From Alphaproteobacteria bacterium (GTDB lineage Bacteria; Pseudomonadota; Alphaproteobacteria; RF32; CAG-239): DNA of 64,000 nt. A model generated the notes under the pieces. The model did not search any database, was not told the origin of the DNA, and saw nothing but the letters and a program-made list of their open reading frames with translations. Below are positions 34,442 through 41,578 of this stretch, piece after piece. How positions within the stretch are numbered: position 1 is the first letter of the stretch; each line of letters opens with the position of its first letter. The position numbers were made by a program, and so were the translations under genes. The stretch covers positions 77,421-141,420 of the forward strand of contig JBGUWS010000019.1 in the NCBI GenBank assembly GCA_045221335.1. The letters run 5' to 3'.

Positions 34442-34666
34442 ATGTTTAAAGAAGAATACGAAGAACCAACAGAGCTTATAAGACAGAGCATAATTGCAAA
34501 TAGAGGTGCCAGACATTACACAAAAGATTTTAGTGGAGATGTCTTTGAGCTCACTATGGATATGCTTGTGCCCAATAGATGTTCAGATAAGAGTAAAATA
34601 AATAAGAAATCTGGTGTGGCAGAACACATATTGCAAAAGTATGAAAAACTACTTTCTGTTTCCTAA
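34442..34666 (+). CDS. Small protein, possible minimal PopZ-like remnant
   Basis: Sits immediately after tolC, the usual popZ position; EEPTELIRQSII and GDVFELT resemble PopZ motifs. Confidence 0.4.
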   Translation: MFKEEYEEPTELIRQSIIANRGARHYTKDFSGDVFELTMDMLVPNRCSDKSKINKKSGVAEHILQKYEKLLSVS

Positions 34667-34670
34667 GTGA

Positions 34671-35390
34671 CTAGGAACAAACCCTGGCAACGGTCAGCAA
34701 GTCCACAGATTTTGCTCCGGATTTTTTTAAAACCGCAGTGCATTCCTTTAGAGTGGAACCCGTGGTATAAACATCATCAATTATAACGATTCTCTTTCCT
34801 TTAATCTGAGTATTATCCGTAATAGAAAAAGCGTCTTTAATATTTTTTTTGCGTTGTTGTCCGTTGCAATGTACTTGCGGCAGAGTGTATCTGATTTTTT
34901 TTAATACTTTATAATTAACAGGTACATCAATAAGCTTTGATAGTTCTGCTGCCAACATGGCTGATTGATTATATTTTCGCTTAAGCAAACGTGTATAGTG
35001 CAAAGGAACAGGGATAATTAAATCAACACCCGCATCAAAAATGTCTTTGCCGGCAATGTACAGCCATTTAGAAAGTAATTTTCTATTTTCAATATGATCC
35101 GCAAATTTAAAATCCAAGAGTAATTTTTTTGATAAATCGTCATAATAAATAGCAGATCGGCAAAGACGAAAGGATCTTTTTTTCTTTAAGCAGCTCGCAC
35201 AATAAAAATCGTGTACCTTTTCTTCCATCATGAGAGGTTTGCCGCATCGTGAACAATAAGGTGTTGTTATAAAAGAAATCTTATCAAAACAATCAAGACA
35301 TAGGCTGTCAGGAGAACTAATCACCTTCCCGCACAACAAACACCTTTGTGGTAAAATAAAATCGATTAATTTTTTCAGCTGACGGATCAT
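34671..35390 (-). CDS. comF: ComF-family double-zinc-ribbon phosphoribosyltransferase-like protein
   Basis: CLLC..CLDC..CSRC..CASC, PVPLHYTRL..RKYNQ, IIDDVYTTGST. Confidence 0.9.
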   Translation of the reverse strand: MIRQLKKLIDFILPQRCLLCGKVISSPDSLCLDCFDKISFITTPYCSRCGKPLMMEEKVHDFYCASCLKKKRSFRLCRSAIYYDDLSKKLLLDFKFADHIENRKLLSKWLYIAGKDIFDAGVDLIIPVPLHYTRLLKRKYNQSAMLAAELSKLIDVPVNYKVLKKIRYTLPQVHCNGQQRKKNIKDAFSITDNTQIKGKRIVIIDDVYTTGSTLKECTAVLKKSGAKSVDLLTVARVCS

Positions 35391-36253
35391 AACTTAGACA
35401 ATTCTGCGGTTAAAGAGGTCAAATTATCAACAACGATAATACCCGATTCTTCCATCAACAATTTTTTCTCTTCCATCGTTGTTATCCCGCGACAAATAAT
35501 ATCTGAGGCCAAGTCTTGATCTTGTGATAACAATATAGAATCCTCAAGCATTAGTGCAATAACTGGTTTTCTCTTTGACATACGAGAATACATGCGTGCT
35601 GTTTCAATCTCGTAATTACCACCGGTTCCTCCAACCATCACAATTGCTTTTGTCTGGTCATCATCATTAAATTTCTTAATATAATCAATAAAATCAGAAC
35701 CGACAATAAAGTCATCTCCCAAACCAATAACAGTAGACTGCCCAAATCCAGCACGGTTCATCTCTAATACAACCTCATATGTCAATGTTGAGGAACGCGA
35801 AATAATACCAATATCTCCTTGTTTATGAATGTTATCCGGAAAAGTACCTAAATAAGCAACTTTTGGTGCAATAATACCCGGAGTATTAGGGCCGATAAGT
35901 AGCGTTTTAGATTTGGATAATTCATGTCTGATTTCCATCATATCATTAACAGGGATTCCTGAAGTAATCACTGCAACCAATTCAAGGTTGGCGTGAATAG
36001 CCTCAAGTATGGCTGATTTTGCAAATTTTGCTGGAACAAAAATAACAGAAGCTGTTGCACCCGTCGCTTTCTTCGCTTCTTTGACCGTTTGAAATAACGG
36101 GATGCCCAGATGGGTAGCATCTTTTTTATTAGGAACAACACCGGCAACAACATTTGTTCCATACTTAATGGCACGCGGTGTATGGAAAGATGCCTGAGTA
36201 CCGGTTAATCCTTGTACAATAACTTTCGTATTTTTATCAATTAGAATAGACAT
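35387..36253 (-). CDS. sucD: Succinyl-CoA ligase alpha-subunit homologue lacking the catalytic His and Glu
   Basis: MSILIDKNTKVIVQG, IGPNTPG, SRSSTLTYE; the canonical GEIGG reads GGTGG and GHAGA is absent. Confidence 0.8.
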   Translation of the reverse strand: MSILIDKNTKVIVQGLTGTQASFHTPRAIKYGTNVVAGVVPNKKDATHLGIPLFQTVKEAKKATGATASVIFVPAKFAKSAILEAIHANLELVAVITSGIPVNDMMEIRHELSKSKTLLIGPNTPGIIAPKVAYLGTFPDNIHKQGDIGIISRSSTLTYEVVLEMNRAGFGQSTVIGLGDDFIVGSDFIDYIKKFNDDDQTKAIVMVGGTGGNYEIETARMYSRMSKRKPVIALMLEDSILLSQDQDLASDIICRGITTMEEKKLLMEESGIIVVDNLTSLTAELSKL

Positions 36254-37462
36254 TTACAAATCCTCCTCGATTGCATCTCGCAACATATCCAGCCCCTCAG
36301 CCGTACTGTTGGCAATTTTAAGAGGAAGCCCGGAAGATTGAAGAATATCAATGGCTTCATTTTTATTTGTACCTTCAAATCTTGCCACAAGAGGAATGTT
36401 TAATCCTAAATCGTTTGCTATACTAATAATTCCGTCGGCGATAAGATTACAACGTGAAAAACCACCAATGATATTAATAAAGATGCCGTCAACCGTTGGA
36501 TTTGTCATAATAAGCCTGATACTTGCCGCAATATTATCTCTATCAACACCTCCTTTGAGGTCTAAAAAGCAAGCAGTAGATAGTCCATGTTTTTGTGCCT
36601 CATTAATAATGTTAATCGCCATACCGCTACCATTCGTGATAATACCCATGCCCGTCATCAATTCTTGATAATGAAAGCCGAGTTTAGCAGCTGTTGTCTC
36701 TCTTCCCTCTGTTTCAGCATCATTTGCAAAACTGGGTAAATCTTTATGACGATACAAAGCATTTTTATCAAAAAGGATATTCGCATCCAATGCCCATATA
36801 ACATTATCTTTATCTAAGCCAATCGGGTTAATTTCCAGCATGACTGCATCGTAATGATAAAATATCTTCAAAACATTATTTAAAAAAGACTTCAGATTTT
36901 TGATATTTCCCTTGTAACGCATAAACTTACGAACAATTTCGATTTGTTCAGGCGTAATTTCTTTTTGCAGGCCAAGATCTAGTTTTAGCATTTTTTCTGG
37001 ATTCTTTATGACCAAATCAAGAACAGTCTCACTGGATAACAAATCCATTGGTGCCAACAACAACATGACAGAAGCTGAAATACGATCAACAATCAACCCG
37101 AAATAATATTGCTTTACGGTCTTTATATATTCTTCAATATAAACACGGCTAACCAGTCTTCCTTTGGCATCCGTTTGGTTTGTAATAAGCATGTTTTGCA
37201 ACATCTTACTGGCATTTGTATAAACGGTATTTAAATTTTTTGATAAACGGATACCACCCTTTTTTCCGGCTCTTTTATCGGAGAACCTTCCCATATCTCT
37301 TGAACCGGCTTGTATTTGTGCTTTAACAATCCAAGGTCCTGAAGGAGAAATTTTAAGAGCCGCCGATTTTGCCTCATTCGGAGTATAGGCAATCAAACCG
37401 TCAGGTATAGTCAATCCAAAGGTCTTGAATATTTTTTTTGCCTGATATTCATAAATATCCAT
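36254..37462 (-). CDS. sucC: Succinyl-CoA ligase beta-subunit homologue, divergent
   Basis: MDIYEYQAK, VKAQIQAGSR, EINPIG, NALYRH, FEGTN; ATP-grasp glycine motifs are altered. Confidence 0.8.
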   Translation of the reverse strand: MDIYEYQAKKIFKTFGLTIPDGLIAYTPNEAKSAALKISPSGPWIVKAQIQAGSRDMGRFSDKRAGKKGGIRLSKNLNTVYTNASKMLQNMLITNQTDAKGRLVSRVYIEEYIKTVKQYYFGLIVDRISASVMLLLAPMDLLSSETVLDLVIKNPEKMLKLDLGLQKEITPEQIEIVRKFMRYKGNIKNLKSFLNNVLKIFYHYDAVMLEINPIGLDKDNVIWALDANILFDKNALYRHKDLPSFANDAETEGRETTAAKLGFHYQELMTGMGIITNGSGMAINIINEAQKHGLSTACFLDLKGGVDRDNIAASIRLIMTNPTVDGIFINIIGGFSRCNLIADGIISIANDLGLNIPLVARFEGTNKNEAIDILQSSGLPLKIANSTAEGLDMLRDAIEEDL

Positions 37463-37463
37463 A

Positions 37464-37871
37464 TTACTTTCCTAAAGTCTGGGCGGTATAATATTTTATC
37501 TTGTCAACCATCGAAAGCATACCGCTCCGACGATTTTGAGTTATATGCTCCCGCAAACCCATTCTATCAAAAATTTCTTCAACATCAATATCTAAAATTT
37601 CTTGTGCAGATTTATCTTTAAAAATTTCCAAAACAACAGCAATAATTCCGCGTACAATAATGGCATCACTGTCTCCGGAAAAAGAAATTTTTTGATTATC
37701 AAAATGAGGAATAATCCAAACTTGAGATTGGCAACCCGGAACTTTCCATTGCTCCTGCTTTTGGTCTTCAGGTAAATGAGGCAATTGATTGCCGAGTTCT
37801 ATCAAGTACCTGTACTTGTCTTCCCAGTTCTCTAAAAAAAGAAAGTTATCAATTAATTCCTCAACAGACAT
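37464..37871 (-). CDS. sufE: Fe-S assembly sulfur acceptor SufE
   Basis: WEDKYRYLIELG, VPGCQSQVW, DSDAIIVRG, RRSGM. Confidence 0.93.
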   Translation of the reverse strand: MSVEELIDNFLFLENWEDKYRYLIELGNQLPHLPEDQKQEQWKVPGCQSQVWIIPHFDNQKISFSGDSDAIIVRGIIAVVLEIFKDKSAQEILDIDVEEIFDRMGLREHITQNRRSGMLSMVDKIKYYTAQTLGK

Positions 37872-37882
37872 AATGCCATCCC

Positions 37883-38323
37883 TTACATCATTTCCAGTAT
37901 CATTCGCGCCTCATCGCTTAAACGATCTATTGTCCACGCAGGTTCCCACACAACTTCAACTTCCACATTTCCGACACCATCGATTGCCCCAACAGCATCA
38001 GCCACTTGCTGAGGTAATATTTCTGCTACAGGACATCCGGGTGCTGTCAGAGACATATCAATATGAACATCACCATTATCTTTTTGATTGATATCATAAA
38101 TAAGCCCCAAATCATAAATATTAATTGGGATTTCGGGGTCATATACTGTCTTGGTAGCTTCTATAATATCTTCATTCTTAGCGATGGTGATACCGGATTC
38201 TAAGGTCTTTCCGGCATATGCCTTATAAACAGGTAAATCCGCTACATCATCAACACTCATGGCAGCAAGCAACTGCATTTCATTATCATCAATAATCTTT
38301 TGTTCTGCTGTATCAGTCATCAT
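37883..38323 (-). CDS. sufT: SUF system Fe-S assembly protein SufT (DUF59)
   Basis: VYDPEIPINIYDLGLIY, MSLTAPGCPVA, VWEPAWT. Confidence 0.88.
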   Translation of the reverse strand: MMTDTAEQKIIDDNEMQLLAAMSVDDVADLPVYKAYAGKTLESGITIAKNEDIIEATKTVYDPEIPINIYDLGLIYDINQKDNGDVHIDMSLTAPGCPVAEILPQQVADAVGAIDGVGNVEVEVVWEPAWTIDRLSDEARMILEMM

Positions 38324-38330
38324 TTTTCTT

Positions 38331-39548
38331 CTATTTAAAAAAGTCTATTGCTTTATAAAGCGCTTTTATGAATATATCAATATCTTCTTTAATGGTATAG
38401 ATACCAAGTGAGGCGCGCGCTAAAGAATTATATCCGAGCCTATTAACCAAAGGTTGAGCGCAAAAATGGCCGGTACGAATAGAAACACCCTCTTTACTAA
38501 GTACAAAAGCCAAATCCTGCGGATGAATATTTTCAATAGCAAAAGAAAACACGCCACCTTTTTCTTTGGCACAACCAAGTATTTTCAATCTGGGAACTTC
38601 TTGCAAATTTTTTGTTGTATATGAGATAAGATTTTGCTCATAAGCTTCTATTTCATCAAAATTATATTGTGCCAGATAGCGAATAGCCTGCCCGAGACCA
38701 ATTGCCTGAACAATTGCCGGCGTTCCCGCTTCAAAACGAGCCGGAGATGAGGTAAAAGTTGTTTTGTCATAGGCAACATGCTCAATCATATCTCCGCCAA
38801 ATTGATATGGCTGCATTTGGTTAAGCAAATCCTTTTTGCCGTACAAAACGCCGATTCCTGTCGGTCCATACAGTTTATGACCGGAAAAAGCCAAAAAATC
38901 ACAATCAAAGTCCGCAACATCAATAGCCTTATGGACAGCAAATTGGCAAGCATCAACCAAAACTTTGGCCCCTATGCGATGCGCTTCTTGGCATATCTTT
39001 TTAATTGGAAAAATCGTACCCAAAACATTAGACATTGCCGTTACAGCTACAATTTTCGTCTTATCGGTAAGGGCTTCTTGAAAATTTTCCCACACAAAAC
39101 TACCATCTTCTGCTAAATCAAAATATTTTAGCGTAGCACCGGTTTTAAGGCACCACTGTTGCCATGTGACCAAATTAGCATGATGCTCCGCTCTCGAGAG
39201 CAAAACTTCATCACCTTTTTTTAAGTTTTGAGCACCATATGTCGCAGCAACCAAGTTGATTCCTTCTGTCGCACCACGTGTAAATATGACCTCATCTTTG
39301 CTTTTTGCTTTAATAAAATGAGCGATAACCTGTCGTGCGTTTTCATAATTTTCAGTCGCTTTTTCAGAAAGCCAATAGCTACCGCGATGAACATTAGCAT
39401 ATTCGTGGCGATAAATCTTTTGAATCTCTTCAAGCACAACACCAGGCTTTTGCGCTGAAGCTGCTGTATCTAAATATGTATTACGTTTTCCTTCAATTAA
39501 ATCTTCCAAAATAGGAAAATCTTTTCTGACATTATATGCATCAAACAT
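38331..39548 (-). CDS. sufS: Cysteine desulfurase SufS
   Basis: YLDTAASAQKP, ANVHRG, SGHKLYGP (PLP Lys), RTGHFCAQP (catalytic Cys). Confidence 0.96.
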   Translation of the reverse strand: MFDAYNVRKDFPILEDLIEGKRNTYLDTAASAQKPGVVLEEIQKIYRHEYANVHRGSYWLSEKATENYENARQVIAHFIKAKSKDEVIFTRGATEGINLVAATYGAQNLKKGDEVLLSRAEHHANLVTWQQWCLKTGATLKYFDLAEDGSFVWENFQEALTDKTKIVAVTAMSNVLGTIFPIKKICQEAHRIGAKVLVDACQFAVHKAIDVADFDCDFLAFSGHKLYGPTGIGVLYGKKDLLNQMQPYQFGGDMIEHVAYDKTTFTSSPARFEAGTPAIVQAIGLGQAIRYLAQYNFDEIEAYEQNLISYTTKNLQEVPRLKILGCAKEKGGVFSFAIENIHPQDLAFVLSKEGVSIRTGHFCAQPLVNRLGYNSLARASLGIYTIKEDIDIFIKALYKAIDFFK

Positions 39549-39647: not shown

Positions 39648-41578
39648 TTACTTACTCTTTGGTTTTCGGCGTGAGGTGATCTTTAAGTGTTTCTTTTTAG
39701 ATCGTTGCTTTCGATAATCTTTCTTTTGAGCTTCGAGCTGTGCTTTTTTTTGTTTTATCCAAGCTTCATTTAATATATCTGTTATTTCCGAACAGTGCGA
39801 ATAATAGGCCGAATTCTTATATTGTGACCTGATAAGATCCAAAGCACTCTCGCCAGCTTTGTTTTTAAGAGTAACATCAGCGCCCTTTGCTAGCAAGGCT
39901 TTAATGGCTTCCACTGCTCTTTCATGTTCAATTTTTTCTGCTTCAGAATCATCCTCATATTCGTCTGTATGAAATCCCCTTTGTACATATTCTTCTAGCG
40001 AAAGCCCAAAAGATCCACCATTTCCGACATGATCCATCAAAATCATAAGGGCAGTATTTCCATCTTCATCTTGTAAATTAACATCAGCATCATAATCCAG
40101 CAGAAGCTTGATTAACCCTAAATCATTTCCATTAGAACAAGCATTCATCAAAGCAGTTCCACCACAGGCATTTTGCACATTAACATTAGCCCCGTTTTCT
40201 AACAGAGTCTCCGCAATTTCTTTACACCCTCTGGCGCAAATATGCATCAATGCTGTCCAACCAAATTCATCTACTGCATTAACATCGGCTCCATTTTTGA
40301 TCAGATATTTTACCATCTTATTAAAGCCATTAACCCAGTTTAAGTCTTTTAATTCATCTAGAGTTAGCTGTTTCCCTCTTTCTTTTAAGTGAACTATCAC
40401 ATTAAGAGAACAACAACCACCACAAAATTTCATTAAATGTGTTTGCCCTGTCTCATCCCGGCGGTTAATATCTTCTCCCTTTTGGAGCATCCGATTAATA
40501 AAATCATATTCAAGAAAAAAGCAAGCCTCATCAAAAACATCATAGGAACAATCTTTGGTATGAAAAGCGACATTAGCACCCTTATCAAGTAAAATTGAAA
40601 ACATCGCATAATGAGAAGCACAAAGAGCTTCACGCAAAGCTGATCGTTTTTCAGTTTCAATTTTTGCACCTTGTTCAATTAAAAAATCAGCGATTCTATA
40701 ATCATATTGCGAACAGCAAGCATGAGTCAGAGCCGTATTTCCGGCTTTATCTTCAAGGTTAACATCGGTGACATATTTATAAATTCTCTTGATGTTTTCC
40801 AGATTTTCAGCCCTACAAAAGTACATGAAAAAAGTCATTCCAGCGTCATCTTGCAGATTAATATCTGCACCTTTTTCTAAAAAAAGTCAATAAGTTCAGA
40901 ATTTGTATCATAGTAAGAACCCTCCTTAGAACGAGAAATAAAACAAAGCGCTGTACGTCCACACTCATCTTGCATGTTGACATCAATACCGGCACCAAGC
41001 AAAATCTTTGCTGTTTCAAGGTCATTAAATTTACAAGCAATATGCAAAGCATATGCTGCGTTAGTAAGATCAGTACCTTGATTTTTTAAGAATCTTAAAA
41101 AATCAAAGCCCTCCTCACTTTGTTTTACAATTGAATAATCTAAAGCGGTAATACCATATACTCCTGGTTCTCTTATAATTTTAGCCCCTTTTAAAACCAA
41201 ATATTTTGCAATCTCAAAATTACTATACTGACAGGCATATGCTAAAGCTGAATAATACTCTCCTACACGTTCGTTATTATCACGTACTAAATCAACGTAT
41301 GGTGTATAGTATGACGCTATTTCACCATAGACCTCTTCTCCGAAAGCCACAAATCCTTGAAAGCTTAATGTCTGCTTTCCTTTATATTTTTGAGGATTAA
41401 CATCAGCACCGTGCTCAACCAAAAATTTGACAGTATCAAAATGTCCTTCTGCAGCAGCCAGCATCAAAAGTGTTCGTCCAAGCGCATCTTGAGCATTAAT
41501 ATCAAGACCATCCGCAAGCATTACCTTAATGCCTTCAATTTCTCCAAACTCATAGTATATCTTTGCTACATCATACAT
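39648..41578 (-). pseudogene. Ankyrin-repeat protein gene split by a 1-nt frameshift (ORFs 40877-41578 and 39648-40838)
   Basis: More than ten G-[AI]-D-[VI]-N...G.T.L ankyrin units. Reading T8 instead of T7 at 40879-40885 gives the continuous DFFLEKGADINLQDDAGMT and a 643 aa protein. Confidence 0.85.

Follow-up and report, generated by a model that had tools for sequence, protein, structure and literature searches.

The window analyzed here, a 64-kb stretch of the 1.61-Mb assembly (scored 100% complete) of an uncultured alphaproteobacterium, carries on its minus strand six tightly packed genes in the order sufS-sufT-sufE-sucC'-sucD'-comF. Our subject is the pair sucC' and sucD', whose products resemble the β and α subunits of succinyl-coenzyme A (CoA) synthetase (SCS) and which lies directly behind sufE, the gene for the sulfur acceptor of the cysteine desulfurase SufS. 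We called genes with Pfam and NCBIfam profiles on the open reading frames (ORFs) of the window and read the junctions straight from the sequence. Throughout, "genus" is the genus of the window genome, and "family" and "order" refer to the wider group of small-genome gut and rumen Alphaproteobacteria. The features of the string are as follows.

37464..37871, minus strand: sufE, sulfur acceptor of SufS (PF02657, E 8.5e-45; VPGCQSQVW cysteine motif retained)
36254..37462, minus strand: sucC', SCS β-like, 402 aa (Pfam ATP-grasp_2 and Ligase_CoA)
37268..37297, minus strand: 10-residue insertion DMGRFSDKRA after β Arg54, in the ATP-grasp glycine-rich phosphate loop (HMMER alignments)
35387..36253, minus strand: sucD', SCS α-like, 288 aa (Pfam CoA_binding and Ligase_CoA)
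36261..36268, minus strand: Shine-Dalgarno-like GAGGAGGA for sucD', within the conserved C-terminal EEDL codons of sucC'
35618..35632, minus strand: GGTGG replacing GEIGG in sucD' (HMMER alignment)
35495..35518, minus strand: former phosphohistidine loop QDLASDII of sucD' (HMMER alignment)
34671..35390, minus strand: comF, ComFC/GntX-type double zinc ribbon plus phosphoribosyltransferase fold (PF18912 and PF00156, TIGR00201)
37883..38323, minus strand: sufT, DUF59/FeS_assembly_P (PF01883, TIGR02945)
38331..39548, minus strand: sufS, group II cysteine desulfurase (TIGR01979, 550 bits, over the cut-off), leading the apparent transcription unit
39601-39573: promoter-like site just upstream of sufS
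39639-39613: terminator-like hairpin just upstream of sufS

The sufE TAA is followed after 1 base by the sucC' ATG, the sucC' TAA (36256-36254) abuts the sucD' ATG (36253), and the sucD' TGA overlaps the comF ATG (ATGA). These coordinates and junctions bear out an earlier note on this DNA, which had described both ORFs as full length and tightly joined. The 1-base gap suggests that translation of sucC' may be coupled to that of sufE. Because promoter-like and terminator-like sites lie upstream of sufS and no terminator comparable to the one there was found within the sufS-comF string, it is plausible that the six genes form one transcription unit. The earlier note had read the whole string as such a unit; the chain stands in the window, and the part that proved invariant among relatives is narrower, sufE-sucC'-sucD', usually with comF.

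The pair has the domain architecture and gene adjacency of SCS (α, CoA-binding plus CoA-ligase; β, ATP-grasp_2 plus CoA-ligase) and matches sequences of solved structures in the PDB with E values of 1e-78 and 1e-59. The α chain scores 325.2 bits against the NCBIfam SucD equivalog, just short of the cut-off of 336, and the β chain 311 bits against a SucC cut-off of 370. Besides scores at the equivalog cut-offs, the pair lacks His246α, Glu208α, and a succinyl-CoA context; Glu197β is kept. AlphaFold2, run on the subunits separately, gave a mean predicted local distance difference test (pLDDT) score of 88.7 and a predicted TM-score of 0.86 for the α subunit, which superimposes on E. coli SCSα with a TM-score of 0.90 and is modeled with low confidence only at residues 239-255; the β subunit reached a pLDDT of 83. 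The predicted folds of SucC' and SucD' are thus intact. Where NCBI and JGI give names to these proteins, they are nearly always succinate--CoA ligase subunit alpha or beta.

The former phosphohistidine site

Phosphotransfer in SCS depends on His246α, Glu208α, and Glu197β, the two glutamates assisting phosphorylation of the histidine at two sites (PMC10342173). We numbered residues by HMMER alignment to the solved E. coli SCS chains. KRMGHAGAII of the α subunit aligns with QDQDLASDII, so that His246 is replaced by Leu248 (codon 35512-35510) and Asp251 occupies the place of E. coli Ala249; GEIGG reads GGTGG (Glu208 to Gly209), SRSGT reads SRSST, and GIGGDP reads GLGDDF. The α protein has no histidine beyond residue 143 and therefore no substitute phosphate carrier in its C-terminal domain. 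We considered a histidine that lies three residues before Tyr246 in some other genera (GHKMGY) and rejected it, as it is not conserved. In the β subunit, NGAGLAM reads NGSGMAI, FLDVGGG reads FLDLKGG, and the glycine loop HAGGRGKAGG reads QAGSRDMGRFSDKRAGKKGG (QAGSR-DMGRFSDKRA-GKKGG). The alignments thus agree, within a codon, with the lost motifs that the earlier note had listed for both subunits (in β, QAGSRDM, NGSGMAI, and FLDLKGG), and add that the β-loop change is also a 10-residue insertion, not only a set of substitutions. This insert is well conserved in the genus, with a mean top-residue frequency of 0.85.

The same losses extend well past the window genome. Among 121 genus sequences, position 246 is Leu in 88, Ile in 13, Val in 9, Phe in 5, Met in 2, and Tyr in 1, and never His; outside the genus, all 23 sequences (other genera, the sister family, and metagenome contigs) have Tyr there, and the surrounding loop, MG-Y-AG-D-IIT, hardly varies. 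Position 208 is Gly in 121/121 genus sequences and Gln, Lys, Thr, or Arg in other genera.

We then compared the α columns that are at least 90% conserved among 38 canonical sequences. Thirty-five of 49 are kept, and the CoA-binding residues Q13, G14, T16, G17, P40, V72, P73, and N122 are retained. Of the nine relaxed columns, seven fall in the loop 235-249; the switched columns are G20A, G154S, and G179D, plus E208G in the genus only. Position 249 is tallied as relaxed (A249D/E), yet 47 of the 48 sequences in the His-less clade described below have an acidic residue there. The nucleotide and Mg site of the β subunit (K46, R54, E99, E197, N199, D213) is retained, its C-terminal domain is the best conserved part, and eight switches are fixed family-wide (A266D, N285C, D288N, G290K, A293V, D308N, I322F, D326N; position 266 is Asp or Ser in the clade). 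Switches present in 47-48 of the 48 clade sequences comprise G154S, G179D, and A249D/E in α and A266D, N285C, D288N, G290K, I322F, and D326N in β.

In the E. coli and pig structures, the phosphohistidine phosphate is held by two helices whose N-termini are α residues 153-155 and β residues 265-267, and the β GGI turn 320-322 contacts succinate. Both helices would therefore now begin with capping residues (Ser and Asp), and the succinate turn would be altered. These alignments suggest that the active site was first rebuilt and then became frozen, with the two ligand pockets beside it never given up. A pocket that has been remodeled and then fixed points to a new function rather than to simple loss.

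A genome without the tricarboxylic acid (TCA) cycle

The window genome has exactly one sucC-like and one sucD-like gene, and a second, canonical sucCD was found neither there nor in 150 relatives. A tblastn search of the window genome with E. coli proteins returned no gltA, sdhCDAB, sucA, sucB, aceE, aceF, lpd, acnB, or icd, and no methylmalonyl-CoA mutase (scpA), succinyl-CoA transferase (scpC), or dapD; the same search readily finds sufB, sufC, sufD, sufS, and sufE. A citrate synthase profile matched 0/26 genomes of the genus and sister family and 0/71 family genomes (23 genera), and 14/15 other Alphaproteobacteria were positive. The 2-oxoglutarate dehydrogenase E1 profile likewise matched 0/26 genomes of the genus and sister family, and none of the 71 family genomes has a genuine SdhA/FrdA. 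No route that supplies or uses succinyl-CoA or succinate was found among sucAB, sdh/frd, gltA, scpA, scpC, and dapD, with 2-oxoglutarate:ferredoxin oxidoreductase and 5-aminolevulinate synthase lying outside this search. Since the other TCA enzymes were not found, the SucC'D' pair is the sole TCA-cycle relic of the window genome.

Searched by phmmer, the complete set of six-frame ORFs of the window genome gave no match to GshA, GshB, or SufA of E. coli; two acetate-kinase homologues are present. Judging by this gene content, the organism looks like a fermenter that makes no glutathione and has no A-type iron-sulfur (Fe-S) carrier. Its congeners come from rumen and gut, and DNA of the stretch is present in gut and bovine-gut metagenomes.

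These findings bear on whether SucC'D' could still be an acyl-CoA synthetase of the nucleoside diphosphate (NDP)-forming type with a different phosphate carrier, which would be Tyr246 in most genera and some other residue in the genus. The invariance of Tyr246 outside the genus and the retention of the ATP-grasp residues and Glu197β would fit such an enzyme. Against it, position 246 in the genus is Leu, Ile, Val, Phe, or Met in 117/121 sequences with no histidine after residue 143, Glu208α is lost or variable everywhere, the N-termini of both phosphate-binding helices appear capped, and no succinate or succinyl-CoA metabolism was found. We regard such an enzyme as very improbable for the group as a whole, and residual synthetase activity through Tyr would be impossible in the genus, given the residues found there. 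With no phosphate carrier, a capped phosphate pocket, and the pathway absent, the SCS reaction itself appears excluded for SucC'D', and the pair almost certainly does another job.

Retention, selection, and a two-step history

In the first 24 congeneric species sampled, both genes are intact at 60-77% identity. Across the order, an intact single SucD-like gene without stops occurs in 150/151 genomes (20 genera), none of which has a canonical second copy or a SucD with the histidine, and the genus alone contributes at least 120 clusters (90% identity) per subunit, of nearly constant length, to a public protein collection. We estimated the ratio of nonsynonymous to synonymous substitution rates (dN/dS) by the Nei-Gojobori method, as pairwise medians over pairs with dS <2. 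Median values were 0.17 for sucD' and 0.145 for sucC', compared with 0.13 for sufS, 0.13 for sufE, 0.12 for sufT, 0.21 for comF, and 0.05 for glgP. In the three closest, unsaturated species pairs the values fell to 0.044, 0.046, and 0.108 for sucD' and 0.010, 0.019, and 0.046 for sucC', as low as glgP. Purifying selection on sucC' and sucD' is strong.

Two genomes depart from this pattern. One (G057, genus g24), with a completeness score of 100%, is the sole genome of the 151 without a SucD-like gene, and SufE, ComF, and SufS matched nothing in it either. Because sufS, sufE, and comF are gone as well, an assembly gap is no less likely than a genuine loss, and we did not count it as evidence: either the region is unassembled or the lineage uses another Fe-S system. 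The other (G147, the roe-deer rumen metagenome-assembled genome RGIG5112; L033:4792-6000 and L069) has an in-frame TAA at codon 267 of an otherwise conserved sucC', a GAA to TAA change in the conserved YKEL motif; this stop either arose recently as a nonsense mutation in the one species or is an assembly error. A further genome (G167; L106 and L107, on two contigs) has two complete sufE-sucC'-sucD'-comF modules that resemble those of two different genera; this bin (2% contamination) is probably mixed, which would explain the two modules without a duplication.

A functionless relic in slow decay would account for the lost catalytic residues, the stop in one species, and the one genome without the pair. 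We find this barely credible in view of dN/dS values of 0.01-0.11 in unsaturated pairs, which are as low as those of glgP, intact ORFs of constant length in 150/151 genomes and ~240 protein clusters, and switched residues that have become fixed. Ordinary decay is thus ruled out. The earlier note had proposed a pseudoenzyme kept for another job rather than a gene pair in decay, and selection, retention without a general accumulation of stops, the missing paralogue and pathway, the want of a substitute histidine, and linkage to sufE all support that proposal.

A maximum-likelihood tree places all His-less sequences of the order in one clade (support 100/100, stem 0.44) among proteobacterial SucD, and the genus forms a second long-stemmed clade (100/100, stem 0.54). 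Because of these clades, and because other genera have Tyr where the genus has Leu, Ile, or Val, we propose a two-step history. In the first step, a single ancient change would have replaced His by Tyr and Ala249 by Asp with loss of Glu208; in the second, a burst specific to the genus would have replaced Tyr by Leu, Ile, or Val and loosened the loop. The β insert is present in all family genera and also in a genome of a different alphaproteobacterial family (G027) that is without citrate synthase, 2-oxoglutarate dehydrogenase, and SdhA and whose SucD keeps His246 and Glu208. Since this His-bearing genome already carries it, the insert predates the loss of the histidine, and the G027 pair may represent an intermediate stage or a parallel path. 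The CoA motif of the G027 SucD (locus L105, G027:C120:4000-12000) is eroded, with TGxQG reading TEAQG, PGKGG reading SGRGG, and GPNCPG reading GPNCYG.

Within the α subunit of the genus, the former phosphohistidine loop and C-terminus have a dN/dS of 0.36, against 0.16 for the CoA-binding domain and 0.20 for the core of the C-terminal domain. The loop is the most conserved part of canonical α subunits, an order that the genus reverses, and its relaxation agrees with the low AlphaFold2 confidence at 239-255. These regional rates bear on the possibility that SucC'D' is a new enzyme, in which the remodeled site I would carry out new chemistry on CoA or acyl-CoA without a phospho-enzyme. The acidic residue 249 of the swinging loop might act as an acyl-anhydride nucleophile in CoA-transferase-like or thioesterase-like chemistry, or Cys285β and the CoA thiol might carry a persulfide from SufE. 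Pocket residues that were switched and then fixed (47-48/48), not merely relaxed, speak for such an enzyme, as do the almost invariant MG-Y-AG-D loop of the other genera, the retained CoA motif together with the well-conserved β C-terminal domain, and the missing gshA and gshB homologues, so that CoA may be a major thiol. The loop of the genus, however, is the least constrained part of its α subunit by both dN/dS (0.36) and model confidence, the retained ATP-grasp residues would go unexplained, and we know of no precedent for such chemistry in the SCS fold. We consider a new enzyme unlikely, although it is the foremost of the alternatives.

Linkage to sufE, proposed role, and known systems

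Throughout the genus the whole block fabZ-sufS-sufT-sufE-sucC'-sucD'-comF-tolC-glgP is syntenic, so the evidence on linkage comes from more distant relatives. There, sufE lies directly upstream of sucC', and sucC' and sucD' are joined, in 15/16 genera examined (the exception being g34), and the three genes also stand together in the sister family (L051) and on metagenome contigs. The sufE-sucC' junction has stayed intact where sufS and sufBCD have been inverted or moved and where other genes have entered between sufT and sufE. In g25, an inverted sufS-sufDCB follows comF; in g33, the sufE-sucC'-sucD' module is inverted relative to sufBCDS-sufT. The gene comF follows sucD' in all genera examined, except on metagenome contig L062, where an ADP-dependent kinase gene on the opposite strand takes its place and sufE-sucC' are still joined. 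The ancestral layout appears to have been sufBCDS-sufT-...-sufE-sucC'-sucD'-comF. Canonical Alphaproteobacteria have sucC-sucD-sucA, so the sufE junction is derived.

The suf genes of the genus are scattered, with sufB ~15 kb from sufS on the same strand (54611-56011, minus) and sufC-sufD ~100 kb off, outside the window (G000:C19:9162-11135); in most other family genera sufB-sufC-sufD-sufS are contiguous. Two ankyrin-repeat ORFs (396 and 233 aa; window 39648-41578) sit between fabZ and sufS. The fabZ-sufS gap is ~90 bases in most congeners and reaches ~2 kb only in the window genome and its nearest relative (G007), which marks these ORFs as a recent insertion. Beyond the other end of the string, right after tolC and convergent with comF, a 74-aa ORF (34442-34666, plus strand) has 41-57% identity across the genus and no assigned family.

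We propose, as somewhat better than an even chance, that SucC'D' is an old exapted SCS of alphaproteobacterial descent, inactivated once in the ancestor of the order and kept since by purifying selection as a CoA- and nucleotide-binding partner of SufE/SufS. In this model, the ancestral SCS would have lost His246α and Glu208α, the capping residues G154S in α and A266D in β would have appeared, and some ten further pocket residues would have switched and then been fixed. The heterodimer would have kept CoA (or acyl-CoA) and ATP/ADP binding, and the conserved motifs make it very probable that it still binds CoA and a nucleotide. Without phosphotransfer, it would serve SufS-SufE sulfur mobilization in Fe-S assembly as an accessory or regulatory partner. 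It might, as a regulator or scaffold, tie the release of sulfur to CoA or energy status; we infer a CoA or acyl-CoA sensing or scaffolding role, as the earlier note had suggested. Alternatively, the CoA thiol and the new invariant Cys285β might form a sulfur-handling site. The failure to find gshA, gshB, and sufA/A-type-carrier homologues lends weak support to a SufE/SufS role. A more specific proposal, that SucC'D' is an unrecognized accessory subunit of the SUF system of anaerobic gut Alphaproteobacteria in which the CoA thiol and Cys285β of the rebuilt phosphate pocket accept or buffer the SufE persulfide or ligate a nascent cluster under gating by the ATP-grasp domain, seems to us rather unlikely.

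Several observations, together with the two departing genomes above, weigh against a role with SufE/SufS. Synteny of the whole region makes adjacency to sufE weak evidence within the genus. In g34 (G117, L098:6099-7364), a flavodiiron protein gene, not sufE, precedes sucC', and in several genera (g18, g22, and g31 among them) sufT and sufE are 1-5 kb apart, with unrelated genes in between. The His-less pairs of other phyla do not lie beside suf genes. Strong conservation of MG-Y-AG-D outside the genus hints that the loop has a function there, one given up in the genus. The case for CoA and nucleotide binding comes entirely from conserved motifs, and the window stretch occurs in no RNA run, only in gut and bovine-gut DNA runs. 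The genes inserted between sufT and sufE (an M20 deacylase far under the DapE cut-offs, a D-Ala-D-Ala dipeptidase-like gene, and glutamine-amidotransferase-like genes) were considered as linked partners and set aside, as they show no coherent link. The g34 locus also has a divergent rubrerythrin gene, so that the SucC'D' pair there stands beside oxidative-stress genes.

Some of these points would be expected if the exapted pseudoenzyme had nothing to do with Suf, sensing CoA or energy in some other process, say, or acting with ComF, and had come to lie behind sufE by an accident of genome reduction in which an old sucCD lost mdh and sucAB-lpd from its surroundings. From canonical sucC-sucD-sucA loci, deletions could make the sufE junction; comF follows sucD' almost everywhere; the g34 pair is not behind sufE; and the pairs of other phyla have no suf neighbors. 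An accident does not readily account for a sufE-sucC' junction that survives when sufS and sufBCD are inverted or displaced, when genes enter between sufT and sufE, and when, on contig L062, comF is replaced, nor for the 1-base stop-start gap in the window, which suggests coupled translation. We therefore hold this explanation to be doubtful, a little behind the new enzyme; new catalysis, a Suf-unrelated role, and a residual synthetase acting through Tyr all rank lower than the SufE/SufS partner.

Our literature searches (SCS pseudoenzyme, moonlighting SCS, phosphohistidine loss, suf-linked sucCD, and RF32/CAG-239 metabolism) found no description of such a pair. The annotation as succinate--CoA ligase has a practical consequence, as metabolic reconstructions will credit this large and widespread gut and rumen family with one step of the TCA cycle and with substrate-level phosphorylation, neither of which it would be able to perform. 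For enzyme evolution, the pair would be a case of a central-metabolism enzyme outliving its whole pathway, with both ligand pockets kept and the active site rebuilt in two steps. For Fe-S biology, a link to SufE that resists rearrangement gives a testable candidate for a new player in sulfur mobilization and for a role of CoA in it.

The closest known system is SucCD of E. coli (PDB 1SCU/2SCU/1JKJ/2NU8; NCBIfam NF004230, NF001913), with which SucC'D' shares the two genes and their order, the domains, and the fold (α TM-score 0.90), as well as the CoA motif, the ATP-grasp nucleotide residues, and Glu197β. Unlike SucCD, it is without His246α and Glu208α, has a rebuilt pocket and a 10-residue β insert, and scores under both equivalog cut-offs. 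SucC' is 31-35% identical to canonical alphaproteobacterial SucC, whereas those proteins are ~55% identical to E. coli SucC, and the pair lies behind sufE without TCA partner genes, whereas canonical SucCD lies beside sucAB. ATP-citrate lyase, citryl-CoA synthetase, malate-CoA ligase, ADP-forming acetyl-CoA synthetase, and FdrA have the CoA-binding, CoA-ligase, and ATP-grasp modules in common with it and are weaker matches. To our knowledge, all characterized NDP-forming acyl-CoA synthetases use a swinging-loop phosphohistidine; SucC'D' is without one and is far closer in sequence to SucCD than to the others.

A likeness in mode is offered by Caulobacter KidO, a regulator of FtsZ that is homologous to oxidoreductases and binds NAD(H) but has no catalytic residues. 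As proposed for SucC'D', a metabolic fold there has persisted under selection after losing catalysis, with its cofactor pocket preserved, although the fold and the process are unrelated. Nearer in kind are His-less SucCD-like pairs of other lineages (L065; L066:6875-8861; L067:668-2538 with L068), in which, as in SucC'D', the phosphohistidine is lost and both genes are retained. They are independent events and far more degenerate, having also lost the ATP-grasp Lys46 or the CoA motif, and have no suf linkage. Their β partners are very degenerate, with Lys46 lost in one and no Pfam match in another; one His-less locus lies in a Bat/VWA operon with DUF503, and another with M50 peptidase, HtrA, and PreP genes. 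Because His-less pairs are found in unrelated lineages, SCS has repeatedly lost catalysis while both genes stayed in place, and the recurrence of this outcome across phyla suggests a second function of the SCS scaffold that would be worth seeking in the canonical enzymes too.

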